Positions 2,413-64,000 of a stretch of DNA of 64,000 nucleotides are shown in pieces. Every line of letters starts with the position of its first letter. The stretch's first letter is position 1. A program made the position numbers and the translations under genes. Source of the stretch: Clostridia bacterium (lineage in GTDB: Bacteria; Bacillota; Clostridia; RGIG8785); NCBI GenBank assembly GCA_045655245.1, contig JAZOOX010000014.1, positions 5,056-69,055 on the forward strand, in the 5' to 3' direction. Below the pieces are notes generated by a model that was given only the letters and a program-made list of their open reading frames with translations, ran no database searches and was not told the origin of the DNA.

Positions 2413-2430
2413 GGAAAGGAGTTCTGAAAC

Positions 2431-2694: not shown

Positions 2695-2703
2695 AACAAA
2701 AAA

Positions 2704-2737: not shown

Positions 2738-2758
2738 GTGAGTAGTGGTTAGTGAAGG

Positions 2759-2787
2759 AAGAAACCTTGCCGGGGTTCTTTTTTTGT
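2759..2787 (+). terminator. second, weaker terminator hairpin
   Basis: GAAACCTTGCCGGGGTTC stem-loop followed by T8. Confidence 0.6.
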
Positions 2788-2871
2788 GGAGAGATTTCCC
2801 TTAAAGTGTGGAGAGGTGGCATTTTACGTTTGGTTCATAAAAATTAATCAAACGCAAAAAGGAGGGGGCGG

Positions 2872-2895
2872 TTTAGTTAACAAAAGTTAACCAAA
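2872..2895. repeat. 24-bp palindrome, copy 1 (TTTAGTTAAC-AAAA-GTTAACCAAA, one mismatch)
   Basis: Inverted repeat with 10-bp arms around an AAAA centre; three copies in the window. Confidence 0.8.
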
Positions 2896-2917
2896 CAGAA
2901 AAAGGCGTGAGACGCGA

Positions 2918-2941
2918 TTTGGTTAACAAAAGTTAACCAAA
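2918..2941. repeat. 24-bp perfect palindrome, copy 2 (TTTGGTTAAC-AAAA-GTTAACCAAA)
   Basis: Perfect 10-bp inverted arms; 46 bp from copy 1, about 60 bp upstream of the cysK -35. Confidence 0.85.
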
Positions 2942-2998
2942 TGAGCGGCGGCAAAAGGGGGTAATGAGCGGAGTTACAAACGGAATCCCTGCTTTCTA

Positions 2999-3027
2999 TT
3001 GACAAATGGTCAGGAAATACATATAAT
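2999..3027 (+). promoter_or_regulatory. sigma-A type promoter of cysK
   Basis: TTGACA (2999-3004), 17-bp spacer, TATAAT (3022-3027): perfect consensus. Confidence 0.8.
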
Positions 3028-3062
3028 TGAAAAAGGCTACAATTTATAAACGAGGTAATTAT

Positions 3063-6282: not shown

Positions 6283-6943
6283 ACGGTTAATGGTGCTGTT
6301 GTCCATTGTCGAACGGGACAAAGGGCAGAACCTGATTAAAGTTTTGGAAACCAGAAACATCCCCATGAACTTCCAATGTGTCGGGATTGGCACTGCCCCC
6401 ACCGAGATGCTGGATATCTTCGGTTTGGGTACCAAGGATAAGGACATTGTTATCAGTCTTGCTACCGAGGTGGCGGTGAAGGATATGATGTCCGATTTCG
6501 GGGCAGTTTTTGAAAGCCATAAGAAGTTCGGCGGGTTGATGATTATTTTGTCCACCACCGCCGCAAGCCGCGTGCTGACAGAGTTGTTAACCCACCACAC
6601 CAACACCCCAGGGGAGAAAGGAACAGGCGCTATGAAAAACGAACATCATAACAATCTGATTATTGTTTCGATGAATGAAGGATACGCCGATAGTGTTATG
6701 CAGGTTGCGCGAAAGGCAGGTGCAACGGGGGGCACCGTTATTAAAGGTCGTCTTGCCGATGTAGAGCTGGTTGCGGAATTGGAGAATACGGTGATTGACG
6801 AGGAAAGGGAGATTTTGTTCATCCTTGCGCCTTTAAAGACAAGCAAGCAGATTATGGAGGACATCAACCGGGAGTTTGGGATTAACTCCAAAGCCAACGG
6901 CATCATCACGGCGGTGCCTACCGAAAAAGCGTATAAAATTTGA
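6275..6943 (+). CDS. tandem P-II-like (GlnB-like) domain protein
   Basis: Two P-II-like halves; ATG 6275 preceded by RBS GAGGGGGATTGGG; classic partner of DUF1538 membrane proteins. Confidence 0.7.
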   Translation: MNKRLMVLLSIVERDKGQNLIKVLETRNIPMNFQCVGIGTAPTEMLDIFGLGTKDKDIVISLATEVAVKDMMSDFGAVFESHKKFGGLMIILSTTAASRVLTELLTHHTNTPGEKGTGAMKNEHHNNLIIVSMNEGYADSVMQVARKAGATGGTVIKGRLADVELVAELENTVIDEEREILFILAPLKTSKQIMEDINREFGINSKANGIITAVPTEKAYKI

Positions 6944-35966: not shown

Positions 35967-35996
35967 AAAGGACTTGGATTTCTCCAAGTCCTTTTT
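35967..35996. repeat. hairpin repeat copy A (AAAGGACTTGG-N-CCAAGTCCTTTTT), inverted orientation
   Basis: 11-bp stem; four copies in the window (also 38011, 40846, 55563); copy A has its loop flipped relative to the others. Confidence 0.85.
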
Positions 35997-36002
35997 GTTA
36001 TA

Positions 36003-36040
36003 AAAAAGAAGACCAATAATGACCAAAAGGATTGTGGTAT
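36003..36040 (+). promoter_or_regulatory. conserved 38-bp box (AAAAAGAnGACCAATAATGACCAAAAGnAnTGTGGTA), copy 1, promoter-like
   Basis: Nearly identical to 55603-55637 upstream of the phage small terminase; contains -35/-10-like hexamers. Confidence 0.5.
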
Positions 36041-36106
36041 GCTTTCTTTGTAAAAGGTTGTTGCTTTACAAACGACCGAGTTTATGATAGTATTAGGAGG
36101 AAATGA

Positions 36107-36763
36107 ATGAACGAAGAAAGAACCGCAGACGTTTTTCGCTCGTACTTGGTTGAAAATGCGGAATATGCAGGACAGGCAGAACTTCCGATCATCAAAACCA
36201 GCGATGAACTTCCGCAAAAACTTGTCCCGTTTTCCAAAGCGGTGACCAGAGGTCGCAAAGACTTCGACAGTTGGATTTGCTTTTATGAGCATGATGACCG
36301 ATTTGAACGGTTGTGGAAAGACCCCAAGCGCTACTTGCCGATTATCAAAAAATTTAAAGGGGTTATTTCACCCGACTTCAGTCTCTACCGCAATATGCCG
36401 ATTTGTATGCAATTGTGGAATACTTACCGTGGTAGAGCACTCGCCAATTGGCTTCAAAAAAACGGCGTAGAGGTTATCCCTAACGTCCGTTTTGGGGACG
36501 AACGCTCTTATTCTTTTTGCTTTGACGGGATTGAATCACAAAAAACGATTGCCGTTGGTACCCACGGATGCATTAAACACAAAACAGACCGCCTCTTTTT
36601 CCAAGTGGGCTTGGATGTTGCTGTCCGTAGACTGAACCCCAAAAACATAATCGTTTACGGACGGGCCCCTGACCGCGTATTTAAGCCCTACCGTGACCGA
36701 GGTATCCACGTTATCGCCTTCGAAAGCGAGTTCGCAGCATCTCGAAAGAAGGTGCGGGAATAA
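36107..36763 (+). CDS. hypothetical protein (phage-associated; possibly DUF4417-like, from memory)
   Basis: 218 aa; ..WICFYEHDDRFERLWKDPKRYLPIIKKFKGVISPDFSLYRNMP..; RBS AGGAGGAAATGA; preceded by the same box as the phage terminase gene. Confidence 0.5.
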   Translation: MNEERTADVFRSYLVENAEYAGQAELPIIKTSDELPQKLVPFSKAVTRGRKDFDSWICFYEHDDRFERLWKDPKRYLPIIKKFKGVISPDFSLYRNMPICMQLWNTYRGRALANWLQKNGVEVIPNVRFGDERSYSFCFDGIESQKTIAVGTHGCIKHKTDRLFFQVGLDVAVRRLNPKNIIVYGRAPDRVFKPYRDRGIHVIAFESEFAASRKKVRE

Positions 36764-37359
36764 TGGGTGGCGGAGCAGGCGGAAATTTTGGAAAAACCCA
36801 GGGGAGCGCATTGGATGCAATCAGTAACCTATTAGTAGCGGCATCTTTGATTCCGGGAGTGGATAGTGTTACCAACGTCATCTCGATTCCCGTTGACATC
36901 CTTCGGGGAGATTGGCTTTCGGTAGGACTGGATGTGCTGGGAGTCTTGCCCGTTGTCGGCGAAGCAGGAGATGCTATGAAACTGGCAAAACTTTCCGACA
37001 AGGCTTCGGATGCTACGAAGGTAGTAAAAAGAGCTACAAAAAGTGTGTCCGATAATGCGAGAAACGTTGCCAAACGATATTCTCTTAGTAAAAATGGTTA
37101 TTTCGGAACGAAAGGAAAAAACACACGAGTTTTCAAAAGCAGTGATCCTTTGAAAGAGTCTGCTGACTTTTATAAAAAGATCAGTAGGGGTGGCGTAGAA
37201 CGGGTTTTGCCTAATGGAAAAGGTGTTCAAACGGTTTTTCCTGATAATTCAAGCGTTGTTTATCGAGTGATTACCAAGACGCTTGATAGTCCTGCGGTTG
37301 AAATAATAGTAAAAACTGCAGGGCAAATAAAGTCACAAAAGATTCATTTTATAAAATAA
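36763..37359 (+). CDS. hypothetical Gly-rich N-terminus protein, possible truncated polymorphic-toxin C-terminal module
   Basis: ATGG overlap with the upstream stop; segment ..GLDVLGVLPVVGEAGDAMKL.. recalls a pre-toxin TG-type linker, then a basic about 90-aa C-terminal domain; no N-terminal secretion domain. Confidence 0.35.
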   Translation: MGGGAGGNFGKTQGSALDAISNLLVAASLIPGVDSVTNVISIPVDILRGDWLSVGLDVLGVLPVVGEAGDAMKLAKLSDKASDATKVVKRATKSVSDNARNVAKRYSLSKNGYFGTKGKNTRVFKSSDPLKESADFYKKISRGGVERVLPNGKGVQTVFPDNSSVVYRVITKTLDSPAVEIIVKTAGQIKSQKIHFIK

Positions 37360-37373
37360 GGAAGTGAGAACAA

Positions 37374-37916
37374 GTGATATTTGTTACTTTAAACGATCAA
37401 ATGGAAAAATTGCTCAGAAGCATTAAAGGAGCCGAAACGGTTTCGTATGAATGCGAGAAAACTTTTAATAATGTTTATGGCAAACTGAGAATCCATACCG
37501 AAAAAGGGTCTGTCGAAGTGACCAATTTTCATCAAACGAGAGACGTTTTAGGGGCTCAGGAAGATGTGTCCGGATTTCAATGCAAAAAGGTGAAAAAAGG
37601 GGATTGTTTTAAATCCTTGTGCGGGGACGTTGCTGAAACGTTTCGGATGAAGGGGCTTGTTACGGAAATCAAAATTATAAATGATGCCATTTCAGTGAAC
37701 GACGGAACATATGAAATCTCTTTCGATCAAGCGATTGTTATAAAAACAGAGGACGAAACAGTAATGTTTTCGCGCGATGCGTGGTTTTCGGAGGATATAA
37801 CAGTTTCCGAGCACGATGATTATGATTTGCTTGTTCCAGTGTCTCGGGTTGCTGAACTGTGGTCATTTGATGGGGATAATAAAGTAAAGATCACCAGAAC
37901 AAGCCGACAGTTATAG
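37374..37916 (+). CDS. hypothetical protein, candidate immunity partner
   Basis: GTG start after RBS AGGAAGTGAG; acidic 180-aa cytoplasmic protein immediately downstream of the toxin-like ORF. Confidence 0.3.
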   Translation: MIFVTLNDQMEKLLRSIKGAETVSYECEKTFNNVYGKLRIHTEKGSVEVTNFHQTRDVLGAQEDVSGFQCKKVKKGDCFKSLCGDVAETFRMKGLVTEIKIINDAISVNDGTYEISFDQAIVIKTEDETVMFSRDAWFSEDITVSEHDDYDLLVPVSRVAELWSFDGDNKVKITRTSRQL

Positions 37917-38010
37917 AAATGAGCGATGGTTTTTTGGGTATTATCATTTGGACAAAGCAATTGATGAAAAACATATCGCCGTATTTGACGAGATCATTAA
38001 ACTTTAAACG

Positions 38011-38038
38011 AAAAGGACTTGGAGAAATCCAAGTCCTT
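38011..38038. repeat. hairpin repeat copy C
   Basis: AAAAGGACTTGGAGAAATCCAAGTCCTT; inverted relative to copy A, so the 36.0-38.0 kb cassette is bracketed by inverted copies. Confidence 0.85.
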
Positions 38039-38123
38039 CTTTGTTTTGGTTTAAAAATCATGGCGATCATCTACCGAGAGTCTGTTCTCGGAAAACAAGC
38101 GAAGCAACTCCTTATTGCAATAT

Positions 38124-38138
38124 GGGGATTATATCCCC
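38124..38138. promoter_or_regulatory. perfect palindrome GGGGAT-TAT-ATCCCC upstream of the XRE gene (candidate operator)
   Basis: 6-bp arms, 3-bp spacer, about 65 bp upstream of the XRE RBS. Confidence 0.45.
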
Positions 38139-38228
38139 TTAATAATTGAGATTATAACCCCCCATAATAGTACTTGCCAAGATGAAGGGGGAAATAGAAC
38201 GATTCGGTTTGACAAGTTGTGGGAGACA

Positions 38229-38399
38229 ATGGAGCAAAAGGGTGTCAGTACCTATCAGTTGAGGGAAAAGTGTGGCATCGACAGCAAGACCATTCGGCGG
38301 TTAAAAGCCAACGAGAATGTTGAGACAAAGACTTTGGACAAGCTTTGCGCCGCACTGGACTGTGTGCTGAGCGACATTGCTGAATATATTGCAGAATAA
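38229..38399 (+). CDS. XRE-family helix-turn-helix transcriptional regulator (start uncertain)
   Basis: HTH_3-like ..GVSTYQLREKCGIDSKTIRRLKANENV..; strong RBS GAAGGGGGAAA at 38184-38194 points to initiation near 38202 (in-frame ATT) rather than ATG 38229. Confidence 0.6.
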   Translation: MEQKGVSTYQLREKCGIDSKTIRRLKANENVETKTLDKLCAALDCVLSDIAEYIAE

Positions 38400-38419
38400 G
38401 GTATCATGGTTCGTTAATG

Positions 38420-38450
38420 AAAAAAGTCAGCCGAGGGGCTGACTTTTTTA
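38420..38450. terminator. bidirectional terminator between the XRE gene and rsmE
   Basis: AAAAAAGTCAGCCGAGGGGCTGACTTTTTT. Confidence 0.85.
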
Positions 38451-38494: not shown

Positions 38495-39196
38495 TTATGA
38501 CCACTCGCCCAGTGCAAACGATAATGCAGCAAGGACGGCAGGACCTGCAGTTTCGGTGCGGAGGATGCGAGGTCCTAAGGTGACCACGGTAGCACCTTGG
38601 GCAGTCGCTACTTCGGCGGGGTCAAACCCGCCTTCGGGACCGATCCAGATGCCCACTCGTTTGGGAGTGCTTTTTAAGGCTTCTTTTAAAGATTGACCGC
38701 CGCACTCATAGGGGAGCAAAAAGAGGTCGAAGTCGCCGATGCGGGCGGGGACGTCTTTGCTTTTGATTAACGGAGAGACGGCGGGGACTTTTCCACGGCC
38801 GCTCTGCTTGGCGGCGGAGAGTGCGATTTTTTGCCAGCGCTCGGTCTTGTCGCCTTTGGCAACGGAGCGGGACATTTCCACTGGGACGATTTCGCTGACT
38901 CCCAATTCCACGGCTTTTTGGATGACCGTTTCCATGCGGTCGCCCTTGGAAAGGCCTTGGAAAAGGACAAACTCGGTTTTCGGCTCGGCAGTGGAGGGGC
39001 GTTTTTCCCTTAAGGTGGCGGTGACGCAATCTTTTTGGATATGGGTGATGGTGCCTACGTAGTCAAAGCCTTGACCATCGCACAGCTCTAAGGTTTCCCC
39101 CGCTGTCATCCGCAGGACGCGGACGATATGACCTGCATCCTCGCCGCGGATATTGGCGGTGGTATCATTTTCGAATTCAAAGAAAAACCGGGGCAT
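38495..39196 (-). CDS. rsmE: 16S rRNA (uracil1498-N3)-methyltransferase
   Basis: PUA-like N-terminus and SPOUT C-terminus (..IWIGPEGGFDPAE..); RBS AAAGGAGG before ATG 39196; the listed ORF start is 144 nt upstream. Confidence 0.85.
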   Translation of the reverse strand: MPRFFFEFENDTTANIRGEDAGHIVRVLRMTAGETLELCDGQGFDYVGTITHIQKDCVTATLREKRPSTAEPKTEFVLFQGLSKGDRMETVIQKAVELGVSEIVPVEMSRSVAKGDKTERWQKIALSAAKQSGRGKVPAVSPLIKSKDVPARIGDFDLFLLPYECGGQSLKEALKSTPKRVGIWIGPEGGFDPAEVATAQGATVVTLGPRILRTETAGPAVLAALSFALGEWS

Positions 39197-39398
39197 GGAA
39201 CTACCTCCTTTTGCTTCATTATAACATATATAGGAACGTTTGCAAGAAAATTTTAAAAAAACCTTGCATTTACCAAAAAACTGTGGTAAACTATTTAGGC
39301 AAAATACGCACATTCGCGGATATTCTCGGCGGTGCCGCAAGGTTCCGAGGGTAGTTGATGCGGGTGGAGGTATTAAAAAAACCGGAGGTGTTTTAAAA

Positions 39399-55562: not shown

Positions 55563-55592
55563 AAAGGACTTGGAGAAATCCAAGTCCTTTTT
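55563..55592. repeat. hairpin repeat copy B
   Basis: AAAAGGACTTGGAGAAATCCAAGTCCTTTTTT at the host/phage-module junction. Confidence 0.85.
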
Positions 55593-55602
55593 TATTTTTC
55601 CA

Positions 55603-55637
55603 AAAAGATGACCAATAATGACCAAAAGAAGTGTGGT
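55603..55637 (+). promoter_or_regulatory. conserved box, copy 2 (promoter-like; -10 TATAAT at 55632-55637)
   Basis: GATGACCAATAATGACCAAAAGAAGTGTGGTAGTATAAT; near-identical to 36003-36040. Confidence 0.5.
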
Positions 55638-55664
55638 AGTATAATTTCGAAAGGAGGAATACGG

Positions 55665-55847
55665 ATGGCAAAACGAAAACAGGCAAGTAGTGCCGTTGCC
55701 TTTTGGGAGCGATTGTTAAACGACCCGGAGGCAGATATCAAGGACCGCTTAAAGGCGTCGGAGTTCCTGGCAAAAGCCCACAAGACTTTTGCCGAAGAGC
55801 CGCTGACCGACCGTGAGCTGAACGTGACGATCCGTGTGGTTGAATAA
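55665..55847 (+). CDS. phage terminase small-subunit-like protein
   Basis: 60 aa; RBS AAGGAGG before ATG 55665; TAATG overlap with the large-terminase start; position and size fit a small terminase, sequence alone is weak. Confidence 0.4.
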   Translation: MAKRKQASSAVAFWERLLNDPEADIKDRLKASEFLAKAHKTFAEEPLTDRELNVTIRVVE

Positions 55848-57214
55848 TGGATTTAAACCTTACCGTCACCCAAAAGCAAAAGTCCTTTCTGGATGCCACT
55901 GCTGACGAAGTGTTATACGGCGGGGCGGCAGGGGGCGGGAAGAGTTACGGACAGGTAGTGGATGCCTTGGTTTATGCCCTGCGCTACAAGGGCATCCGTC
56001 AGCTGGTGCTTCGCCGCACCTTTCCCGAACTGAAGCGGAGTTTGATTTTAACCTCTCTTGCCCTTTTTCCAAAAGGAGTCTGTCAGTACCAAAGCGCAAA
56101 CCATCGGTTTGTCTTTCAAAACGGCTCGGTCATCGAGTTTGGTTATTGTGACACGGAAGGGGATGTGACCCAGTACCAATCGGCGGAGTACGATGTTTTA
56201 CGATTTGACGAGCTGACCCACTTCACCGAGTTTCAGTACCGTTACTTAATCTCCCGTATTCGTGGCGTCAACGGCCATCCCAAACAGGTCAAGGCCACTA
56301 CCAATCCGGGGGGCATCGGGCACAGTTGGGTGAAAGAACGGTTTATCGGTCACGACGGGGAGTGGACGGCAGAGGATGGACGCACGCGAGTATTTATCCC
56401 TGCCACCGTGCGGGACAACTGTTTTTTAATGTCGTCAGACAGTGGCTACCTCGCCCGTCTGGAACAGTTGCCCGAGCAGGAAAAACGTGCCTTGCTTTAC
56501 GGGGACTGGGACTTGTACGAGGGACAAGCCTTTGGGGAGTTTCGCAACAACCCCGACGGGTATCTCTCCCGCCGCGGCAGTCACGTCATCACCCCTTTCG
56601 AGATTCCGGAACACTGGCGGCGATTCCGCAGTTTTGACTTCGGCTATGCCAAGCCTTTTGCGGTTCAATGGTGGGCGGTAGATGAGGACGGACGTGCTTA
56701 TCTTTACCGACAACTGTACGGGTCCACGGGGAAACCCAACGAGGGGAGGCGGTGGACGGTCAGTCAAATCGGTCAGGCCATTGCCCGTATCGAAGCGGAA
56801 GAAGAACGGGGACGAAATATCACGGGGATTGCCGATCCCAGTATCTGGGACACCTCCCGTGGGGAGTCGGTTGCCGAGATGCTGGAGCGGGAGGGGGTTT
56901 ACTTCGACCCCGGGGACAACGCCCGTCTGGCAGGGAAGATGCAGCTGCACTACCGACTTCAGTTTGATGAAGGGGGCTTGCCGATGCTTTATGTCTTTTC
57001 TACCTGTCGGGACTTTATCCGCACATTGCCCGGGCTGATTTATGACCGACACCGCTCCGAGGACATCGACACCAACGGCGAAGACCACGACTATGATGCC
57101 TGCCGCTACTTTTTAATGGCAAATCCCATTGGAGCAAAACGTCCACAGCCCCGCGGGCATTTCGAGACCGACCCCCTCGACCGAAAAGTATGGGTCATTG
57201 ATTTACCAAAGTAA
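55847..57214 (+). CDS. phage terminase large subunit (PBSX/XtmB-like)
   Basis: Walker A ..YGGAAGGGKSY.., about 450-aa compact terminase with C-terminal nuclease region. Confidence 0.9.
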   Translation: MDLNLTVTQKQKSFLDATADEVLYGGAAGGGKSYGQVVDALVYALRYKGIRQLVLRRTFPELKRSLILTSLALFPKGVCQYQSANHRFVFQNGSVIEFGYCDTEGDVTQYQSAEYDVLRFDELTHFTEFQYRYLISRIRGVNGHPKQVKATTNPGGIGHSWVKERFIGHDGEWTAEDGRTRVFIPATVRDNCFLMSSDSGYLARLEQLPEQEKRALLYGDWDLYEGQAFGEFRNNPDGYLSRRGSHVITPFEIPEHWRRFRSFDFGYAKPFAVQWWAVDEDGRAYLYRQLYGSTGKPNEGRRWTVSQIGQAIARIEAEEERGRNITGIADPSIWDTSRGESVAEMLEREGVYFDPGDNARLAGKMQLHYRLQFDEGGLPMLYVFSTCRDFIRTLPGLIYDRHRSEDIDTNGEDHDYDACRYFLMANPIGAKRPQPRGHFETDPLDRKVWVIDLPK

Positions 57215-57233
57215 TGAAGATAGGAGAAGAAAA

Positions 57234-58757
57234 ATGGAAGAATTTTTCAGAGAAGTGCAACGGGCGTTTAATACTTACGTTGCCGAAAAAGCCGCCATTG
57301 ACAGTGAACTGGTAGATGGTGAGGAATGGTTTAATGATCGTTGTTTTGACGGCGGTCGGGAAGCGGATGGGAGTGTTCGCGGTGCAGGCGGATATGTGTA
57401 TAACATTGTTGCCAACAAGCATGCCGATGCCATGGACCAGATGCCCGCGCCCCTCTTTTTGCCCCGTGAGCAAGAGGACACGATTGCGGCTGAGGAAGCC
57501 TCGCAGGTGTTACCGGTAGTACTGGCACGATGCGGGTTTGAACGCACTTATTCCGACGGCTGGTGGAACAAGCTAAAGCATGGCACTGCCGCCTATGGAG
57601 TTTTTTGGGACAATGCTAAATCGGATATCTGCATTCGTGAGGTGGACCTGCTTAACATCTTTTGGGAACCTGCAGTAGAGGACATCCAGGACAGCCGATT
57701 TTTGTTTATCACTCGTGTGCTGAGCCGTCAGCAGATGGGGGAACTGTACCCCCAACTGTCGCCTGCCGACTATGCCGCTCCCATCAACCTGCGGAGCTAC
57801 GAGCATCGCTTTGACCCCGAACGGGTTTTGGTGGTGGATTGCTACTACAAAGACCGCGGAGTACATCTTTTAAAGTTCTGCGGGGACAAAATCCTGTACC
57901 ACTCTAAAGAGGACAAGCGGTTAAATCGCCGCGGCCTCTATCATCACGGACAGTATCCCATCGTCTTTGACCGCCTGATTGCCAAGCGGGGGACACCTCA
58001 GGGTGCAGGGTTTATCTCTCTTTCCCGCGGGGCGCAGGAGTACATTGATCGCCTGGACAGTTTGCTGCTTCAGAACGCCTTGGTGTCGGGACGGCAACGC
58101 TGGTTTATCAAAGACAACGGCGGCGTGAACGAACAGGAGTTTTTAAACTTTGAAAATGATTTGATTCATGTTGCGGGAAGTCTGGAAGAAACGCACATCC
58201 GTCCCTTCCAGGCAACGGCACTGCCCTCCTATGTGCAGTATTTGCGGGAACACAAGATTTCCGAATTGAAGGAGATTTGCGGCAACCGCGACTTCCAGCA
58301 GGGCGCTACCGCCCAGGGGGTTACTGCTTATTCTGCCATTGCCGCCTTACAGGAAGCGGGGAACAAGCTCAGTCGGGATATGATTGCCGAGAGCTATGAT
58401 GCGTTCCGACAGATCATGCGGCTCTGCCTTTCTTTGGTGGTCCAGTTTTATGACGAGGCGCGGGTTTTCCGTGTAACGGGGGACCAATTCCTAAGCTTTT
58501 CTGCCAAGTCACTGGTACGGGACGGAAAGGAAGTGGAACTGGACATTGAAGTACAGGCACAGAAGCAGAACCCCGTTACCCGCGAAGGACAAAACCAATT
58601 GCTGATGGAACTCTATCGGCTGGGGGTATTCCGCCCCGAGAATGCAACGGCCGCTAAAGTACTGGTCTCCCAGATGGACTTTAACGGGCGTGAGGGTCTG
58701 CTTTCGGCGCTGATTCGTGCCGAGCAGGGCTACCGCAACGAGGAGGCACAGGCATGA
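57234..58757 (+). CDS. phage portal protein
   Basis: About 507 aa directly after the terminase; RBS AGGAGAAG before ATG 57234; size and position fit a portal. Confidence 0.75.
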   Translation: MEEFFREVQRAFNTYVAEKAAIDSELVDGEEWFNDRCFDGGREADGSVRGAGGYVYNIVANKHADAMDQMPAPLFLPREQEDTIAAEEASQVLPVVLARCGFERTYSDGWWNKLKHGTAAYGVFWDNAKSDICIREVDLLNIFWEPAVEDIQDSRFLFITRVLSRQQMGELYPQLSPADYAAPINLRSYEHRFDPERVLVVDCYYKDRGVHLLKFCGDKILYHSKEDKRLNRRGLYHHGQYPIVFDRLIAKRGTPQGAGFISLSRGAQEYIDRLDSLLLQNALVSGRQRWFIKDNGGVNEQEFLNFENDLIHVAGSLEETHIRPFQATALPSYVQYLREHKISELKEICGNRDFQQGATAQGVTAYSAIAALQEAGNKLSRDMIAESYDAFRQIMRLCLSLVVQFYDEARVFRVTGDQFLSFSAKSLVRDGKEVELDIEVQAQKQNPVTREGQNQLLMELYRLGVFRPENATAAKVLVSQMDFNGREGLLSALIRAEQGYRNEEAQA

Positions 58758-59335
58758 GTGAACTTTCTTTGGGCGCAAGAACTGCGGAACCCGCCCACCC
58801 GCAAGACGGTGCAAATACCGAAAGTCCGTCCGCCGTCCGGACCCCGATTCTGGCGTTTTATTCCCAGGACGAAGTCGACCGTTTTATGGGAAAACGTTTG
58901 GGAGAGAGTCGGAAAATCAAAGAGGCGTACGAGCAACTTCAGCCGATGCTGGTACACCTGCGCAAAGAGTATGGCTGTGATAACGACCGGGATTTGGTCG
59001 GGCAGGTGTTAGGTCAGGCGGAAGCAGGCGGCTTACGCTATGGAATCGGCGCCACCACCCCTGCCGACTGGGCGGCGTTGTTACAGGAGCACCCCGATAT
59101 TGACCCTGTTGAGGTCACCGACGACCCGAAAGTCCGTCGGGCAATGCGAGCGGGGTTTAGCCTGTCCGAAGCTGTACGGATTGCCAAACTGTTAAACGAC
59201 GGCGCTGCCCGCCCTGACGAAAACGGGGCGGCACGGCATCGCAGCAGGATTCGGCTGGATATTGAGCGGATGACCGACGCCCAGTTAAACGAAGTGGCAC
59301 GTCGGGTCAGACGCGGAGAACTTGTTCAATTTTAG
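58754..59335 (+). CDS. hypothetical phage protein (scaffold/head-morphogenesis position)
   Basis: ATGA overlap with the portal stop; lies between portal and capsid. Confidence 0.35.
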   Translation: MSELSLGARTAEPAHPQDGANTESPSAVRTPILAFYSQDEVDRFMGKRLGESRKIKEAYEQLQPMLVHLRKEYGCDNDRDLVGQVLGQAEAGGLRYGIGATTPADWAALLQEHPDIDPVEVTDDPKVRRAMRAGFSLSEAVRIAKLLNDGAARPDENGAARHRSRIRLDIERMTDAQLNEVARRVRRGELVQF

Positions 59336-59348
59336 GAGGAATTAAGTT

Positions 59349-60506
59349 ATGAGTAATGTAAACGAAAACATTCAAAGCACCGCCACCTTAAGTGCGGAAA
59401 ACAAAACCTATTACGACAAACGATTGATTCAGTTTGCCAAGCCCAATCTGGTCCACGACCAGTTCGGTCAAAAGCGACCTATCCCTAAAAATGGCGGCAA
59501 AACCATTGAGTTCCGCAGTTTCTCGTCCCTGCCCAAGGCGTTGGTACCCCTGACCGAGGGCGTTACCCCCGATGGCGAAAGTCTGACCGTGGAGCAGATT
59601 TCTGCATCGGTCAACCAGTACGGCTCGTACGTTACCACCACCGATATGCTGAATATGACCGCCATTGACAACATTGTGGTTGAGACTTCCGAGGTCTTAG
59701 GTGACCAGGCGGGAAGAACCTTGGATACTGTTGTTCGCGAATACTTAAACGCCGGTTCTTCGGTTCAGTATGCCGACGGCGAAAAGGATTCCCGTTCCCA
59801 GCTGACTGCCGCTGATACCCTGTCGGTGAAGGCGGTCCAGCGTGCCGTTGCAACCTTAAAAAAGAACAATGCCAAACCTTTTGCCGACGGGTCTTTTGTT
59901 GCCATTGTCCATCCCGCCGTTGCTCATGACCTGATGCGCGACCCCGAATGGAAGGACGTTGCCAATTACAACCCTGCGGAATGGTATGCGGGTGAAATTG
60001 GCCGCATCGCAGGTGTTCGCTTTGTTGAAACCACCGAAGCCAAAATTTTCGAAGCGGAGGATCTGGCAGGATTTGATGACTTGACGATTACGGCAGTAGA
60101 TGCCCAAAATCGCAAGGTTACCATCGCTGAAGAAGTGGATGCATCGGTCATCGGCCGTGAAATCGTCATTAACGGTCTGGACTACACGATCGCAGCTGTT
60201 GACGGTTTTACCCTGACCTTGTCCGAGGTCCTGCCCGCATCGGTTGCCGCTAACGATAAGGTTTACCCCGCCGGCGGCACCTCGGACGGCAGTCCTGTTT
60301 ATTCTACTTTGATTTTGGGTCGTGATGCTTATGGTGTTACCGAGATTACCGGCGGCGGTCTGGAAATGATTGTAAAGCCTTTGGGCTCCGGCGGTACGGG
60401 CGACCCCTTAAACCAACGTTCCACCATGGGCTGGAAAGCAACCAAGGTGGCTAAAATTCTGACCGAAGAGTATATGATTCGCGTGGAGACTACTGCAGCA
60501 TTATAA
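59349..60506 (+). CDS. phage major capsid protein
   Basis: 385 aa, RBS AGGAGG; capsid-like composition and position after the scaffold. Confidence 0.65.
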   Translation: MSNVNENIQSTATLSAENKTYYDKRLIQFAKPNLVHDQFGQKRPIPKNGGKTIEFRSFSSLPKALVPLTEGVTPDGESLTVEQISASVNQYGSYVTTTDMLNMTAIDNIVVETSEVLGDQAGRTLDTVVREYLNAGSSVQYADGEKDSRSQLTAADTLSVKAVQRAVATLKKNNAKPFADGSFVAIVHPAVAHDLMRDPEWKDVANYNPAEWYAGEIGRIAGVRFVETTEAKIFEAEDLAGFDDLTITAVDAQNRKVTIAEEVDASVIGREIVINGLDYTIAAVDGFTLTLSEVLPASVAANDKVYPAGGTSDGSPVYSTLILGRDAYGVTEITGGGLEMIVKPLGSGGTGDPLNQRSTMGWKATKVAKILTEEYMIRVETTAAL

Positions 60507-60554
60507 GAAAGTGGGGGCGGGATACCGCCCCCTGGCACAAAAGGAGGAATTACA

Positions 60555-60884
60555 ATGGCAGAAAAGAAAATTACTGTCAGTTTGACCGCCGAGGAACTGA
60601 TGGCGTTAAAGCAACTGGTCCATAACCCTGAAACTCGCGCGGTTTCGCCCGTTAAGGAACCGGCTGATGCGGTTCGTGCTTACTATGACGAGCCGGTGGA
60701 GATCTATCTGCATCCTTACGGCACCCGCGAATACCTGACCGTAGTGGTCAACGGCGTGACCTATCAGGTGCGCCGCGGGGTCAGTGTCACTGTTCCCCGT
60801 CGTGTAGCACGGGTTATTCGTCAGGCAGAGGAAAATTATCGTCGTGCGCTGGTCTTTGATCGCCGCATGATCGCGCAAGGGTAG
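60555..60884 (+). CDS. hypothetical phage protein (109 aa)
   Basis: RBS AAAGGAGG; head-completion position. Confidence 0.4.
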   Translation: MAEKKITVSLTAEELMALKQLVHNPETRAVSPVKEPADAVRAYYDEPVEIYLHPYGTREYLTVVVNGVTYQVRRGVSVTVPRRVARVIRQAEENYRRALVFDRRMIAQG

Positions 60885-60893
60885 GTGATAAAA

Positions 60894-61934
60894 ATGCAAA
60901 ATTTTTGGTGGAATCGCAAGTTCTATCATGGAAGACCCGAGCCGGACAGTTACAGACTGTCTCGCTTGGAAGAAACCAGCTCGACAACCGCCGAAACCCT
61001 GTCTGCTCTGTCAAAGGCGCAGACTGCGACAGACGCTTTAAACGATGCCCAGGGCAAACTTCTGGGGGAACACACTGCCCTGCTATCCCATCTGACTGAC
61101 ATCGCCGCCTCCACGCAAGAGGATGTGGAGCAGGTTGTGGCAGAATGTGACAGCATCAGTAACGAACTTACTGCCCTGGAGCAGAACGACAATGTGCTGT
61201 CTGCTCGTATCGATGGCATCGAAGAAGCCTGCGCTGATACTTCGGCAGAGCAAGCCACACGGTTGAACCAACTGGAGTCTGCTACTGCTGAATTCCCGAA
61301 AAAACTTACTGTACTGGAAAACAAACTCACGTCTACAAGAGGTGAGGGGATGGGGTACCTCCCCTTTCAAGGTTACGGTTGCACCTGCAATCTATTGGGT
61401 TCGTATCCCGCCGGAGGAGTTACGTTGTTCAGCGAATCATACGATGCAGCCAACCTATATCTGTCACCAATAAATGAGACACAGCTGATAATCCCCCCAG
61501 GGAGTGGGGTCCTTTTCGGATCGATGGATGGTATCAAATTTTCTGATGGAGAATTTGAAGTGATTAACCTTTCCCAGATGCCGATGCTGAAGAAAATAGG
61601 TTTTTGTGACTTTGTGTTTCACGGTCTTGTCATGCCCTCAAAACCTATCTTGTACGAGGTGGTGTTAGAGAGAACTAACGGCGTTACAGTAGATTTACAA
61701 AATCAAACCCAGCTGTTCAACCTGACCATGGTAAATTGTCATGCAAATGTGCGCTTACCCGATACTCTTCCGAACCTGGAATATGTGGTATTGGATAGTA
61801 ATAAAGCGCAGGATGAAGATTTTTTGAAAAAATATCTCTTCGACCGTAGTCAAACTAGCCCCGGACGGGTGTCACTGTCGGGCGCAACGCCTCCCGACTG
61901 GCTGGCAGAACGGAACTGGACGGTGATAGGGTGA
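60894..61934 (+). CDS. hypothetical phage protein: N-terminal coiled coil + C-terminal Leu-rich repeat-like region
   Basis: Heptad-rich N-terminal half (..ALSKAQTATDALNDAQGKLLGEHTALLSHL..), C-terminal LRR-like segment; ATG 60894 after RBS AGGGTAGGTG. Confidence 0.45.
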   Translation: MQNFWWNRKFYHGRPEPDSYRLSRLEETSSTTAETLSALSKAQTATDALNDAQGKLLGEHTALLSHLTDIAASTQEDVEQVVAECDSISNELTALEQNDNVLSARIDGIEEACADTSAEQATRLNQLESATAEFPKKLTVLENKLTSTRGEGMGYLPFQGYGCTCNLLGSYPAGGVTLFSESYDAANLYLSPINETQLIIPPGSGVLFGSMDGIKFSDGEFEVINLSQMPMLKKIGFCDFVFHGLVMPSKPILYEVVLERTNGVTVDLQNQTQLFNLTMVNCHANVRLPDTLPNLEYVVLDSNKAQDEDFLKKYLFDRSQTSPGRVSLSGATPPDWLAERNWTVIG

Positions 61935-62662
61935 ACGTTTTTGCTTTAAAGATTATCCATGATGCCGATGCCCGCATTCCTAACGCCCTCCCTACGGCAA
62001 AGAAACTGGACTGGCTCAACCGCCTGGAAGCCCGTATTCGTTTGGAAATCAAGCGCATCTATGACGAGTACACCCTTACGGTTACCGAGGATAAACCCTA
62101 CCTGCTCCCCGTGTCGGAAGAGCAAATAGAATGGGTGTTTTATAACGGCAACCCCATCCCGAAAATCGACCTTCGTTCTGCCGAAGGGTTGCGGGCGGGG
62201 GAGTACCGATTCGTTTGCCGTAGCCTGCCCGAGCCTCTGACCGATCGAGTGGTGACCGATGAAAACGCCACTTTTTCGGCGGACAGCATCACCTTCTCCG
62301 AGTACCATCCTTTTGTGAAAGGCGATTTTATTGGCATTTCGGAAACGCCAGACAACAATGTTACCGCCACGGTAACCGAAATTGATGGTGTGACCGTCAA
62401 AACGGATTACACCGCCTTTGTTGCAGGGGAAATGCCCGCTACCGTATGCAGTATCAACGACCGTCCCATGGAGATCCCCACTCAGCACCCTTGCTTTGGG
62501 ATATACGAGGAGTATCTGTGTATGGAACTCGCCCGTCACCTGGCGGATACCGAGCGTTTCCGTCTGGCAGAGAGCGCCTTTGCTGCCTTATGGGAGGAGT
62601 ACGCCCGACTCTACCGCCAGACTGCCCCCCAAACCCCCGGGGCAAAAGTAAGGGGGATCTGA
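61931..62662 (+). CDS. hypothetical phage protein (243 aa)
   Basis: GTG start overlapping the upstream stop (GTGA). Confidence 0.4.
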   Translation: MNVFALKIIHDADARIPNALPTAKKLDWLNRLEARIRLEIKRIYDEYTLTVTEDKPYLLPVSEEQIEWVFYNGNPIPKIDLRSAEGLRAGEYRFVCRSLPEPLTDRVVTDENATFSADSITFSEYHPFVKGDFIGISETPDNNVTATVTEIDGVTVKTDYTAFVAGEMPATVCSINDRPMEIPTQHPCFGIYEEYLCMELARHLADTERFRLAESAFAALWEEYARLYRQTAPQTPGAKVRGI

Positions 62663-64000
62663 TATGGCAGAAACCTTACTGGACATCAAAACCTTCGGCG
62701 GGCTGAACTTTAGTCCCAATGCCGAAGCGGGGGAGTGTGCCATTGCCCTCAACCTGGACGATGCCAATGCCCCCGCCTTGCGTACCGCATACGGATTTAC
62801 CGATGAGACGGTAACCGAAACGGGTACTTTTCAGGGTCATCTCATCGAACAGGGCAAAACGGTGATGTCGGTCTTTGACGATACGTTGTATATGGGTCAA
62901 ATGCAATTTCCGTTAGAGCCTTTGGGTGTGCCTCGCAGATTTCTGCGTATCACGCCCAAGGACGTTTTAATCTTCCCCGATTGCTACCGCTACTCCTATT
63001 CCCACGTCGAGTGCGCCCCCTTGGACGAACGCTTTACCTCCGAAGGGACGGCTACTCACGATGACGGCAAAGTGCGGGTGAAATTGACCACCCGCCCGCT
63101 CAGCTCCATCCGTGGTCGGGTCTACCTGGATGATGCGGGGTATACCTATTACGACCCCGAAACCGCCCCGGGTGAATCTCTTTTGTACTTCGAGGTGGAG
63201 AGTTACGACCACGACGGAAGCGGTTGTGCGTTAGTGTTAAAACCTGTCACCAACGGAACCGGCATGTATTCTTATTCGTCGGATAAAGTCAAAGACCGAC
63301 TCACCCTCCGTCAGGTCTATCCCCGCATGGACCATGTAATGATCTTCCGCAACCGGCTCTGGTGCGTGGGCGGAATGGTCCTTACCGCATCAAAACTGGG
63401 TGACTACTTAAACTTCACCGATTTTTCGGGTCTTTCCACCGATAGCTTTTCGATGGAAGTGGAAGAACCCCTAAACGCAATCTCCCACTTTGGAGAACGG
63501 GTGGTCTTTATGAGCAAAACCCACCTCTACGAACTCTACGGCGACCGTCCTTCCAACTATCAGGTCTCAGCTCCGAAATCGGGCGGTTGTACCTACCCCG
63601 ACTCTGTATGTACTGCAGGGGGTTACCTCATCTATGCCGACGATCGCAACCTCTATCGTTATGGTGGCGGGGACCCCCAGGTTACCACCGAACGGCTGGA
63701 TTTCCCCCAATGGACTTCGGTGTTCGGCGTTTCGGACGGCGAATCCTGTTATCTTGGCATCGACGGCCACCTCTATCGCTACCGTCCCAAACGCAATACC
63801 TTTTATGCCCTCGACCGCACCGCCACCCTGGGCATCACCCAACAAAGCACCTGTTTCTTCTATAATAATAAGGGATACTTCTGTCCCAACCGCGAACGGA
63901 CGGGTGAGGTGCACTTCCGTTCGGGTTGGCTCTGCCTGGACAAGCGGGGTCGCGTCGCACCGAAAGAGATTCTGCTCCGTATTGACGGTGCGGTAGACGA
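62663..64000 (+). CDS. hypothetical phage structural protein (partial, 3' end outside window)
   Basis: Open frame from ATG 62663 (MAETLLDIKTFGGLNFSPN..) to the window end (over 445 codons) with no stop; absent from the ORF track, presumably because it is incomplete. Confidence 0.5.

Follow-up and report, generated by a model that had tools for sequence, protein, structure and literature searches.

A DUF4417-linked candidate toxin-immunity cassette with a conserved glycine leader in a gut Clostridia chromosome

The window considered here, the whole 64,000-nucleotide stretch of DNA that was analysed, comes from a gut Clostridia chromosome and carries a low-GC island of ~2.4 kb. At 37-45% GC against 50-57% in its flanks, the segment at ~35.9-38.4 kb fits an acquired island. 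It is bordered on the left by a flavodiiron/rubredoxin gene and on the right by a minus-strand gene (38495-39340) that we take to be rsmE-like, from our own reading of it and not from a library scan. Three close-packed genes, for a DUF4417 protein, a 198-aa Gly-rich protein and a 180-aa protein, are enclosed by a 26-nt hairpin present in two perfect copies (Table 1). The ATG of the second gene has one base in common with the TAA stop of the first (TAATG), and the GTG start of the third is supported by homologues that share its start residue. The open reading frames, the overlap, the hairpin copies and a palindrome described in an initial annotation of this DNA all lie where it had placed them.

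Table 1. Positions in the window of the cassette, its flanking elements and the block shared with the phage head module
Feature	Coordinates	Strand	Remarks
Hairpin copy A	35968-35993	-	-19.2 kcal/mol, z -4.7, T-run; left island edge; loop inverted relative to B and C
Block of ~38 nt, AAAAAAGAAGACCAATAATGACCAAAAGGATTGTGGTA	36002-36039	+	Aligns with a stretch directly 3' of hairpin B and 5' of the phage terS/terL operon
Candidate sigma-70-type operon promoter	36065-36093	+	TTTACA-17-TAGTAT with TG extension; from a consensus scan alone, no functional evidence
AGGAGG ribosome-binding site	36095-36100	+	Just 3' of the candidate promoter
DUF4417 gene	36107-36763	+	218 aa; constant partner of leader-bearing toxins
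Candidate toxin gene	36763-37359	+	198 aa
Glycine leader, MGGGAGGNFGKTQGSA	36763-36810	+	Constant element of DUF4417-linked proteins
Optional helical N-module (...LDAISNLLVAASLIPGVD...GLDVLGVLPVVGEAGDAMKL...)	36811-37047	+	Residues 17 to ~95; AF2 pLDDT <50
C-terminal tip of candidate toxin	37048-37359	+	Residues ~96-198; alpha+beta domain, family without annotation
Candidate cognate immunity gene	37374-37916	+	180 aa; GTG start behind AAGGAAG ribosome-binding site
Hairpin copy C	38013-38038	+	-23.1 kcal/mol, z -6.0; terminator-scan match
Palindrome GGGGAT-TAT-ATCCCC	38124-38138		Operator-like; degenerate second copy at 38147-38161
Small XRE/HTH_26 gene	38231-38399	+	Likely ATG at 38231; longest ORF from TTG at 38115
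Second hairpin, flanked by A- and T-runs	38420-38449		-19.5 kcal/mol, z -4.9; right island edge
Hairpin copy B and shared 37-nt block	55564-55638	+	Directly upstream of the phage head module, outside the cassette

The 26-mer AAGGACTTGGAGAAATCCAAGTCCTT occurs in three mismatch-free copies in the window, the third (copy B) at 55564-55589 on the plus strand, and gave 0 matches in shuffled sequence. Copies A and C form a 32-nt inverted repeat (97%), and folding yields for all three strong stem-loops followed by T-runs, with z from -4.7 to -6.2. Copy A serves the upstream flavodiiron/rubredoxin gene as intrinsic terminator, and copy C the three-gene operon, while the second hairpin is a bidirectional terminator common to the XRE gene and the gene converging on it from the right. 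Of the initial picture of a hairpin-bracketed cassette, the inverted copies are real, but they are ordinary terminators, and the 26-mer is not specific to the cassette, since it also terminates a GH35 gene at 55.5 kb and stands 3' of a gene in a Faecousia MAG that we read, from its translation and with no scan, as pnp.

The block that copies A and B share contains a direct repeat, GACCAA-N4-GACCAA, found in the window only at 36011 and 55610; it gives ATGACC-16-TATAAT at copy B and a degenerate -10 element at copy A, and looks like a promoter, an operator or a recombination scar. The head module that follows copy B comprises a small terS-like ORF, named from its position only and with no Pfam match, terL, a P22-like portal gene and a capsid gene. 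Downstream of the operon, the palindrome and its degenerate copy (38124-38161) overlap promoter-like hexamers, weak on the plus strand and strong on the minus strand; no copy of the palindrome lies upstream of the DUF4417 gene. The small regulator behind it is indeed of the XRE type, its product matching PF13443 (HTH_26, Cro/C1-type HTH) with an E-value of 1.5e-16. Its inclusion in the cassette holds only in that the gene lies inside the low-GC island, as seen in the GC profile; the XRE protein next to another cassette of the family (locus L009) is unrelated to it, and on such comparisons its partnership with the cassette is not conserved. Cassettes often have regulators of the XRE or ImmA type nearby.

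The 218-aa protein had been tentatively likened to a phage DUF of the DUF4417 kind, and it is one: it matches PF14386 over profile positions 2-182 of 183 with an E-value of 9.2e-66 (221 bits against a cut-off of 28.9 bits). A role for DUF4417 as an invariant component was absent from that earlier reading. Its predicted model (pLDDT 80.5) is a compact alpha/beta barrel whose strand ends bear invariant polar residues, and the closest fold to this model appears to be that of tRNA-guanine transglycosylases (TGT/DpdA-like). TIM-like barrels frequently look alike, so the match may not mean common chemistry. No TGT similarity appears in Pfam (PF01702) or PDB profile searches, hhalign against E. coli Tgt returns a probability of 0.1%, and no CxCxxC...H zinc motif is visible by eye in the sequence. 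DUF4417 is frequently fused to ParB_N and carries the PHROG label 'nuclease'.

Coverage mapping and alignments show the 198-aa protein to be built in three parts: first the 15-residue leader, then a helical module that relatives may lack, and last a C-terminal tip that varies among them. The leader of the window protein, MGGGAGGNFGKT, where AF2 pLDDT falls below 50, is predicted to be an exposed, flexible N-terminal M-G-G glycine tail, as in the type IV CBASS substrate. Among 74 proteins, M1 and G2 are present in 74/74, F9 in 68, G7, T12 and G14 in 67 each and G4 in 66, with the consensus MG[AGT]GxxG[NG]FGxTxG. The leader is conserved over hundreds of clusters and retained in the 125-aa forms that do without the helical module, and, 36763 apart, no genuine ORF in the window starts with such a sequence. 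From 80 metagenome loci recovered by DUF4417 alone, 77 downstream ORFs were assessed, and 68-70 of these carry the leader; at nearly all such leader-bearing loci, the last base of the DUF4417 stop is the first base of the start codon. The helical module also occurs in proteins with other tips, and in two paralogues (P0093 and P0242) the same module or tip is fused to a C-terminal MuF fragment. Conserved residues of the tip include N98, K153, D161, R168, S176-P-A-V and Q192-K-I-H-F.

The candidate toxin of the window has no signal peptide or known secretion domain and no match to MuF (PF04233). The pre-toxin linker proposed for it does not stand: PT-TG (PF14449), LXG and WXG100 are without a match in the window protein at E<=1 and in 56 relatives and ten longer homologues at E<=0.01, and the likeness of its ...PVVGEAGDA... 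stretch to PT-TG linkers is superficial. The proposal that the protein ends in a polymorphic-toxin-type tip fares well. Residues 1 to ~95 are conserved among relatives whose C-terminal tips are many and unrelated, with Pfam recognising Ntox50 in 11 and ParB_N in 4. Across 74 loci, at least 21 tip clusters pair near one-to-one with 25 clusters of the next ORF, which is a 104-aa protein after Ntox50, DUF2247 after another tip and a 183-aa protein after a third.

The 180-aa protein invariably accompanies the tip type of the window, and next to a 42%-identical tip its counterpart is only 23% identical. Its 31 homologues, all of ~180 aa, lie on contigs that also hold toxin homologues; neither it nor they match any Pfam family. 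By this pattern, it behaves as a candidate tip-specific immunity partner, the role first proposed for it. The same tip type goes with DUF4417 proteins just 35% identical to each other. As far as sequence comparison goes, tips and immunity genes are shown to be reshuffled among loci, with DUF4417 and the leader constant and translationally coupled, and DUF4417 is an invariant component of the system. Two traits of polymorphic toxins in the sense of Zhang/Aravind 2012, a conserved N-terminus with many tips and a tip-linked immunity gene, are present in the family. No known route of trafficking or secretion (T2/5/6/7SS, PVC, PrsW, MuF) shows in the domains of the window protein or its homologues, bar the MuF fragments of the two paralogues.

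DUF4417 is present in 506 phage records. In sequenced phages, it precedes the terminase genes, where the packaging/structural operon begins, and is followed by proteins with MGGRG or MGGGG leaders, including ADP-ribosyltransferase toxins. The order in S. pyogenes phage A1 is gp26 (DUF4417), gp27 (starting MGGRGASSG) and terS, and S. suis phage phiST1 has the same order; on an IMG/VR contig, a ParB-DUF4417 fusion leads into three ORFs starting with MGGRG and then terS/terL. In Mycobacteriophage Trixie and Gordonia phage Nedarya, gp1 (DUF4417) is followed by gp2, an ADP-ribosyltransferase toxin that starts with MGGGGGG or MGGRGSGGGG, and Finemlucis and DirkDirk have this pattern too. These phage leaders (MGGRG...) agree with the Clostridia leader in the first four or five residues only, and their late-operon arrangement comes without any immunity gene. 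Lactococcus phage proPhi6 has DUF4417 and no leader protein.

Two viral contigs (L016 and L017), whose terL and portal are 57% and 37% identical to those of the window, carry an array of cassettes directly after the portal gene, with a fragment of the N-module, Ntox50 and immunity genes and a lone Barstar gene. In L017, a direct repeat of at least 127 bp flanks the array on both sides, a sign of insertion. Adjacency to a portal gene is seen only in these two contigs: the window cassette has housekeeping genes on either side and is separated from the head module by 19.6 kb, most chromosomal cassettes are likewise among housekeeping genes and outside prophages, and a related terL or portal lies within 3 kb of the cassette at 0/80 metagenome loci. 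Particle-mediated delivery is conjecture for this reason.

We favour, with a probability of roughly 55%, the reading of the cassette as a complete polymorphic toxin-immunity module, phage-derived and of an undescribed type, in which DUF4417 and the 15-residue glycine leader of the toxin are the constant part, DUF4417 docking or modifying the leader for what is probably phage-linked delivery. Toxicity, immunity and the contact between DUF4417 and the leader are all inferred. In such a scheme, the transglycosylase-like barrel of DUF4417 would bind the glycine tail that the toxin exposes at its N-terminus, and possibly modify it chemically, much as the TGT-like Cap10 of type IV CBASS grips the MGGS... 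tail of CdnD. Such handling would license the effector to be packed into phage or phage-like particles or to be released along with them, and the effector, probably a nuclease, would act on non-immune neighbour cells, with the 180-aa protein protecting the producer. The obvious candidate vehicle would be the head-gene operon of this genome, which shares the terminator and the promoter-like 5' block.

The comparison with CBASS draws on the finding that Cap10, a TGT family member, binds the MGGS... N-terminus of its type IV partner CdnD (tail GGSGGSFGSG), that QatB requires its MGTS N-terminus and that a QueC-like enzyme (Cap9/QatC) installs the CBASS modification, an N-terminal deazaguanylation (bioRxiv 10.1101/2025.04.06.647259; PMC13279940). 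Like type IV CBASS and QatBC, the cassette places a gene for a protein of a predicted, possibly TGT-like fold beside an effector-type enzyme with a flexible MGG..., F-G tail (GGGAGGNFGKT in the cassette toxin, to be set against that of CdnD). It differs in having no QueC-like enzyme, CD-NTase or Cap11, in that any modification here is putative, and in its context of a toxin-immunity pair or phage late operon instead of a signalling defence operon. A QueC-like gene (PF06508-type; Cap9/QatC) is absent from the window cassette and from the annotated neighbourhoods of loci L002-L011.

These precedents are both defence systems and so lend themselves to a different and, in our estimate, unlikely explanation, in which the cassette is an intracellular toxin-antitoxin or abortive-infection module that stabilises the island or kills infected cells, DUF4417 sensing or regulating, for example by holding the toxin tail in the manner of Cap10. 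A toxin devoid of secretion signals, encoded in small chromosomal islands amid housekeeping genes with regulators frequently near, would suit such a role. Against it, however, the three operon proteins match no PADLOC-DB defence model (the XRE protein has weak generic HTH matches only); extreme tip polymorphism, matched immunity genes and multi-cassette arrays typify competition toxins and not TA pairs; and the phage arrangement that dispenses with immunity genes, like the paralogues fused to MuF, is hard to place.

We give less credence still to the idea that DUF4417 is a phage nucleic-acid enzyme, of a DpdA-like base-exchange or glycosylase type, functionally unconnected with the toxin and merely followed by a moron hot spot. 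The predicted fold, the ParB_N fusions, the 'nuclease' label, the conserved position beside terS, which is a known moron site, and the repeat-bracketed array of L017 would all agree with it, but it leaves unexplained why unrelated inserted proteins have one leader, why their start codons overlap the DUF4417 stop and why DUF4417 and leader protein stay together in chromosomal islands remote from phage genes.

The initial annotation had regarded the tip as stripped of its secretion and delivery domains, a view at odds with the size of its relatives. Searched by profile, 1.84 billion representative proteins yielded 1,198 related protein clusters, and the best 150 of these matches are nearly all 90-230 aa long. 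Six exceed 250 aa: five measure 252-400 aa, two of them bearing a C-terminal MuF fragment or an Ntox tip, and the sixth is a 3,828-aa protein with 22 short repeated matched stretches. The members scanned among these best 150 of the 1,198 showed neither an LXG nor an Rhs domain, and no T7SS genes were seen in any neighbourhood examined. A silent orphan tip and immunity cassette, spare for or from a complete secreted toxin of the LXG/T7SS, Rhs or MuF kind and with DUF4417 as an unrelated neighbour, is accordingly improbable: truncated fragments and arrays do exist (L016/L017; L002, which is two tandem cassettes; L011, which ends in a DUF4417 fragment), P0093 and P0242 resemble MuF toxin remnants and the tip of an 86-aa protein of L016 resembles the C-terminal end of a phage 'toxin' profile of 676 residues, but the window gene has its own DUF4417-coupled ATG and a leader under strong conservation, loci as a rule carry cassettes that are intact and of full length, the search gave no LXG/Rhs protein with the module or tip among the best matches scanned, and Pfam shows no PT-TG or LXG domain in the members scanned.

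Among the known systems closest to the complete module of the preferred reading are the MuF polymorphic toxins of temperate phages (PMC3482391, PMC5576092), for which phage-head delivery is the proposed route. MuF toxins and the cassette family both occur in Firmicutes and phages and combine short tips, including Ntox50, with immunity genes that follow, and the MuF-fragment paralogues connect the two. The window protein differs in that it lacks MuF, its constant partner being a separate DUF4417 gene together with the glycine leader, and in that most cassettes lie outside prophages. In the passages reached by term search of Zhang et al. 2012 (PMC3482391) and Jamet et al. 2017 (PMC5576092), there is no mention of DUF4417 or the glycine leader, and neither paper is one of the four in which the term DUF4417 appeared.

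A second parallel is provided by the phage ARTs encoded beside terminase and portal genes, which Iyer et al. 2022 (PMC9503650) predict from gene context to be packaged in the head and injected; a term search of that paper likewise brought up no mention of a glycine-rich leader or DUF4417. The actinobacteriophage DUF4417 partner is a VIP2/Alt-type ART, located before a terS-like gene where annotated (Nedarya). The head-packaged T4 Alt differs in relying on a cleaved capsid-targeting sequence, and the window effector in having a non-ART tip and an immunity gene. With LXG/WXG100 (T7SS) toxins, the cassette shares the features of Gram-positive polymorphic toxins, small tips (nucleases in those toxins and putatively so here) and downstream immunity genes, and it is set apart by the lack of an LXG, WXG100 or PT-TG match in the family members scanned. 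The pairing of DUF4417 with the leader would point to an undescribed mode by which toxins and phage effectors are loaded or processed. Some toxins of the family stand behind ParB_N and Metallophos genes, not DUF4417.

The three ORFs of the cassette are closely packed on one strand at the positions that the initial annotation had given them, and the first product is, as had been suggested there, a DUF4417 protein (PF14386, E 9e-66; 1,443 close homologues). Together they form a real, intact and widely conserved module composed of a polymorphic toxin (protein 2), a partner protein specific to the toxin's variable C-terminal tip (protein 3), and an invariant pairing of DUF4417 (protein 1) with the leader, the ~15-residue glycine-rich N-terminus of the toxin; relatives of this module sit in phage packaging regions. 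For proteins 2 and 3, nothing passed the thresholds of Pfam, NCBIfam or PADLOC, nor was any PHROG or PDB-sequence match significant; the start of protein 3 is supported by homologues that begin at the same residue. Named relatives of the cassette come from Ruminococcaceae, Oscillospiraceae or Clostridia MAGs.

Features of the cassette, its surroundings and the phage head module, in window coordinates
Feature	Position	Strand	Remarks
Hairpin copy A	35968-35993	-	left edge of low-GC island
Shared block, cassette copy	36002-36039		~38 nt, with GACCAATAATGACCAA; same orientation after hairpin A as after B, though the hairpin A loop is inverted
Protein 1 ORF (DUF4417)	36107-36763	same as other two ORFs	218 aa
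Protein 2 ORF (toxin)	36763-37359	same	198 aa; ATG has one base in common with preceding TAA
Protein 3 ORF (candidate immunity)	37374-37916	same	180 aa; GTG start, 14 nt past previous stop
Hairpin copy C	38013-38038	+	after the operon
Palindrome GGGGAT-TAT-ATCCCC	38124-38138		in front of HTH_26 regulator gene; degenerate second copy at 38147
Promoter-like TTGGCA-18-TATAAT	38151-38180	-	11/12 matches to consensus
Hairpin copy B	55564-55589	+
Phage head module	55564-64000		starts immediately past hairpin B and the GH35 gene; window ends inside it
Shared block, phage copy	55602-55638
terS-like ORF	55665-55847		60 aa; named from position, no Pfam match
terL	55847-57214
P22-like portal gene	57129-58757		followed by a 193-aa ORF
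Capsid gene	59349-60506

The constancy of the DUF4417-leader pair is best seen when DUF4417 serves as the sole query. Among the 80 metagenome loci recovered in this way, 77 contain a downstream ORF, which opens with M-G-[AGT]-G-x-x-G-[NG]-F-G-[NS]-T-x-G in 68 cases by a fixed pattern and in 70 by eye; in almost every leader case, the DUF4417 stop codon and this start codon overlap by one base, the last of the former and the first of the latter. Beyond the leader, these proteins are mutually unrelated. Overlapping reading frames cannot account for the leader's conservation, since its coding DNA falls outside the DUF4417 gene. Within the 64-kb window, the toxin gene is the only genuine ORF with a leader-type start. 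Conversely, DUF4417 lies directly upstream of the toxin in the neighbourhoods examined, whatever the tip, variants with ParB_N and Metallophos apart, and the same tip occurs beside DUF4417 proteins only 35% identical to each other; DUF4417 and leader are therefore the constant module and the tips are cargo. DUF4417 presumably recognises the leader. A programmed frameshift joining DUF4417 to the toxin was rejected, as no slippery site was seen and the genes are separate everywhere.

Two kinds of variant were observed. At three loci (L002 6786-8603, L003, and L007 11650-13375), a ParB_N gene and a Metallophos (calcineurin-like phosphoesterase) gene precede the leader toxin in place of DUF4417, ParB_N being also the domain that is fused to DUF4417 in phages. 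Four distant tip relatives (P0250, P0263, P0281 and P0287) open with MSKxSSGLFxGTxG in place of MGxG, and thus keep the leader core G-F-x-G-T-x-G while the first residues change.

In a homology search with protein 2, ~40 proteins match end to end at 53-90% identity, ~45 have residues 1 to ~95 in common with it and then diverge, and ~30 of ~125 aa have just residues ~93 to 198. Aligned, the relatives show a near-invariant N-terminal part followed by unrelated C-termini, in which Pfam recognises Ntox50 (11 proteins), ParB_N (4) and a MuF fragment (1). The tip-only short forms still open with a glycine-rich MGxGxxG... stretch; the architecture is therefore a leader (~15 aa), an optional helical module (~80 aa) and an exchangeable tip (~105 aa). 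The AlphaFold model is confident over the tip (pLDDT ~85; alpha-beta-alpha-beta4 topology) and poor over the first 90 residues. No convincing structural relative of the tip emerged, a Foldseek search of the toxin model against the PDB returning nothing, and hhalign showed no relation to Ntox50 tips (probability 0.4%). PDB sequence searches with all three proteins and two profiles likewise gave nothing meaningful, weak LINE-1 and HinP1I matches being at chance level. Judged by residue conservation, the polar positions N98, K153, D161, R168, S176 and Q192-K-I-H195 of the tip would suit a metal-independent nuclease.

The middle protein had at first been read as having a stretch like a pre-toxin linker and a tip that had lost its delivery domains. 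Neither half of this idea is supported: no PT-TG, LXG or WXG100 domain was found in the proteins scanned, which also excludes these assignments for the helical module, and a profile search over 1.84 billion representative proteins yielded 1,198 related clusters, the best 150 of which are nearly all 90-230 aa long. Five of the six exceptions among these 150 (252-400 aa) include carriers of C-terminal MuF fragments, of Ntox50 and of a weak Ntox37 match, one MuF-fragment protein having the very same tip as protein 2; the sixth, of 3,828 aa, matches over 22 short stretches. LXG, Rhs and PT-TG were not seen in the relatives scanned from the best 150 clusters, and the toxin gene therefore did not arise through decay of a long secreted toxin.

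The toxin-immunity part of the initial annotation stands, because tips and next ORFs pair almost one-to-one: among 74 leader proteins (68 complete), 21 tip clusters face 25 next-ORF clusters, a pattern of sequence clusters characteristic of polymorphic toxin-immunity systems. In the loci examined, the tip of protein 2 always has a 180-186-aa protein next downstream, and even beside a tip of ~42% identity this neighbour resembles protein 3 (23% identity, E 5e-4). The 180-aa family has 31 members, all ~180 aa and on the same contigs as toxin homologues. Other tips have other next ORFs, namely one of 104 aa after Ntox50, DUF2247 after another tip and one of 183 aa after a third. From this pairing, we infer that protein 2 is toxic and protein 3 confers immunity.

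DUF4417 occurs in 506 phage records, often as gene 1 or just before terS, and is frequently fused to ParB_N. It lies between RusA-type genes and terS in Streptococcus phages A1 and phiST1, follows the late-transcription activator and precedes terS in Lactococcus proPhi6, and in cluster A mycobacteriophages and Gordonia phages occupies the left end as gene 1 or 2, with an annotated terS a few genes downstream in Nedarya. The leader accompanies it: A1 gp27 opens MGGRGASSG, an identical sequence lies in frame upstream of the annotated start in phiST1, in an IMG/VR contig, three ORFs in a row opening MGGRG... separate a ParB-DUF4417 fusion from terS/terL, and gp2 begins MGGGGGGAGSGG in Trixie and MGGRGSGGGG in Nedarya. 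Finemlucis gp116 and DirkDirk gp109 bear the leader too; proPhi6 is the exception, its next gene having none. PF03496 (E 6e-19) and phrog_3895 identify Trixie gp2 as an ADP-ribosyltransferase toxin; its Nedarya counterpart carries the annotation of a VIP2-like ADP-ribosyltransferase. Iyer et al. 2022 (PMC9503650) argued from gene context that phage ARTs beside terminase and portal genes are packaged in the head and injected.

Several of these phage loci merit separate description. In Mycobacterium phage Trixie (507-2427) and Gordonia phage Nedarya (399-2250), actinobacteriophages of the cluster A type, DUF4417 is gene 1 and the VIP2-like ADP-ribosyltransferase with its long poly-glycine N-terminus is gene 2; gene 3 (~100 aa), common to both, could be an antidote to gene 2. 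In the mycobacteriophages Finemlucis (2399-3449) and DirkDirk (2384-3422), DUF4417 and a leader protein (MGGRGGGGGG...TLYHRTS..., phrog_6170) lie within a tRNA gene cluster, not by terminase genes. In Streptococcus phage IPP66 (3617-4363), GGGRGANFEKG is found ~65 residues inside the annotated ORF that follows ParB-DUF4417, right after a CTA codon, which is no initiation codon; this points either to a wrongly annotated start or to trimming of the N-terminus that exposes the glycines.

Two viral contigs from IMG/VR (L016/L017) combine the cassette with phage head genes. Here the DUF4417 gene is broken into two ORFs and stands at the front of an array that continues with a leader toxin, a Barstar gene, and Ntox50 with its immunity gene; a P22-like portal gene and then a 332-aa gene come immediately before it. 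On both sides of the array (locus coordinates 3709-3835 and 6519-6645) lies one and the same sequence of at least 127 bp, without a mismatch and in direct orientation, which reaches the contig end and corresponds to the 3' end of the 332-aa gene; this suggests insertion by recombination that duplicated the end of that gene. The terL of these contigs is 57% identical and their portal 37% identical to those encoded in the window at 55.8-58.8 kb. The window's own head module has no integrase or replication genes upstream and could be a prophage left end or a domesticated particle-gene cluster.

What DUF4417 might do with the leader is suggested by its predicted fold, a compact alpha/beta barrel (AlphaFold pLDDT 80.5). 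Active sites of barrel enzymes are located just after beta-strands, and the invariant polar residues of DUF4417 directly follow successive strands (E61/D63, D90/S92, N126/R128, H153/C155 and E206/E208). In a fold comparison, archaeosine tRNA-guanine transglycosylase ranked first (11.0), with QTRT2 at 8.3, DNA preQ0 insertase DpdA at 8.2, bacterial TGT at 7.4, Cap10 at 6.9 and unrelated TIM barrels at 7-8. Sequence and profile searches, including the PDB and hhalign, found no DUF4417-TGT link, and the hhalign probability against E. coli Tgt was a non-significant 0.1%; its alignment of D90 with Tgt D89 carries no weight. The relation therefore rests on the predicted fold.

Type IV CBASS offers a recent precedent: there Cap10, a TGT-like protein, holds its partner CdnD by the flexible N-terminus (residues 2-15, GGSGGSFGSGFDPR), whose Gly2 bears a 7-deazaguanine installed by the QueC-like Cap9, and QatB similarly needs its MGTS N-terminus (bioRxiv 10.1101/2025.04.06.647259; PMC13279940). 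DUF4417, too, has a predicted TGT-like fold, and it is translationally coupled to proteins with a glycine-rich start, here MGGGAGGNFG... Unlike Cap9/QatC systems, no cassette examined has a QueC-like gene, and any chemistry must therefore differ or use host enzymes. The simplest reading of the modelled fold and this analogy is that DUF4417 docks, and perhaps modifies, the leader tail.

We infer further that toxin delivery is linked to phage or phage-like particles. A bolder reading, to which we give about one chance in four, is that DUF4417 is a minimal transglycosylase-fold enzyme that acts on the free N-terminal Gly of the next-encoded protein for loading into capsids with DNA. It might hold a modified N-terminal tail, as Cap10 does, or it might use transglycosylase-type chemistry to attach the effector, through its N-terminus, to a nucleobase or to nucleic acid itself. 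In phages, the timing would be that of DNA packaging, which would explain the gene's fixed site before terS and the ParB fusions; toxins and host-takeover enzymes would travel with the DNA into the capsid and then into the next cell, and the Clostridia cassettes would be a phage loading device recast as an inter-bacterial weapon, with immunity genes added. Less likely readings are a purely intracellular toxin-antitoxin or abortive-infection role, a silent orphan cassette and a coincidental moron hot spot, all three of which are harder to square with the conserved leader, the coupling of stop and start codons and the paralogues fused to MuF. That new protein-handling chemistry is concealed in the cassette is, all the same, a minority chance.

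Polymorphic toxins are classed by their N-terminal delivery device, and the cassette would define one that is absent from the toxin catalogues searched, a separate DUF4417 gene with a 15-residue glycine leader. The closest described system is the MuF polymorphic toxin family (Zhang et al. 2012, PMC3482391; Jamet et al. 2017, PMC5576092); the cassette suggests a possible recruitment route for effectors without MuF or capsid-targeting sequences. With it, a widespread domain of unknown function acquires a concrete role that can be tested. The term DUF4417 occurs in only four papers of the library searched, three of which have it in no more than a survey of domain fusions, a gene list or an annotation table. 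The cassette also ties chromosomal toxin islands of gut Clostridia to ADP-ribosyltransferase toxins of actinobacteriophages. The parallel with Cap10-CdnD and QatBC would take the theme of an N-terminal glycine tail met by queuosine-pathway folds past defence systems. If true, the enzyme reading would amount to a new protein-loading and post-translational mechanism and provide a function for gene 1 of cluster A mycobacteriophages and for more than 500 sequenced phages.

In the window, the cassette belongs to a segment of 37-45% GC (~35.9-38.4 kb; 50-57% outside), an acquired island between housekeeping genes, of which those to the right, read from their translations, are presumably a minus-strand rsmE-like gene followed by rpsB-like and tsf-like genes. 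The XRE regulator behind a perfect palindrome, another feature noticed at the outset, was confirmed as an HTH_26 protein (Pfam, E 1.5e-16); no XRE operator was found in front of the DUF4417 operon, and the protein is unrelated to the XRE beside the L009 cassette, a homologous locus. Rfam gave nothing above gathering scores over the region. The promoter-like site on the minus strand points leftward, out of the XRE control region and in the direction of hairpin C, with no convincing ORF downstream, and could drive a divergent or antisense transcript or be a chance match.

The hairpins thought to bracket the cassette are not specific to it. The 26-mer AAGGACTTGGAGAAATCCAAGTCCTT occurs three times with zero mismatches (chance expectation, none), and all copies have 11-14-bp stems followed by T-runs (z -4.7 to -6.2), with loop orientation as the sole difference; they are intrinsic terminators of a flavodiiron/rubredoxin gene (A), the three-gene operon (C) and a GH35 beta-galactosidase gene (B). 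A scan of the genome collection gave four matches only, each single-copy. The exact hairpin also stands in a Faecousia sp. MAG (L012 727-752) after a gene that we take from its translation to be pnp; the supposed bracket is therefore a clade-common terminator type, and its role as transposon ends was rejected. The Faecousia copy suggests a terminator sequence copied or conserved across Oscillospiraceae genomes. Past hairpin B, 37 nt nearly repeat the 38 nt past hairpin A (AAAAAGAwGACCAATAATGACCAAAAGrAkTGTGGTA); the block was sought elsewhere in the window and in the other loci and is absent, and since the latter lack its GACCAA-N4-GACCAA motif, it is local to this genome. At copy B, the block supplies ATGACC-16-TATAAT, and copy A has a degenerate -10 element, so that regulation may or may not be shared; the block may be a common promoter or operator, or have been left behind when the cassette recombined with the left end of the phage.
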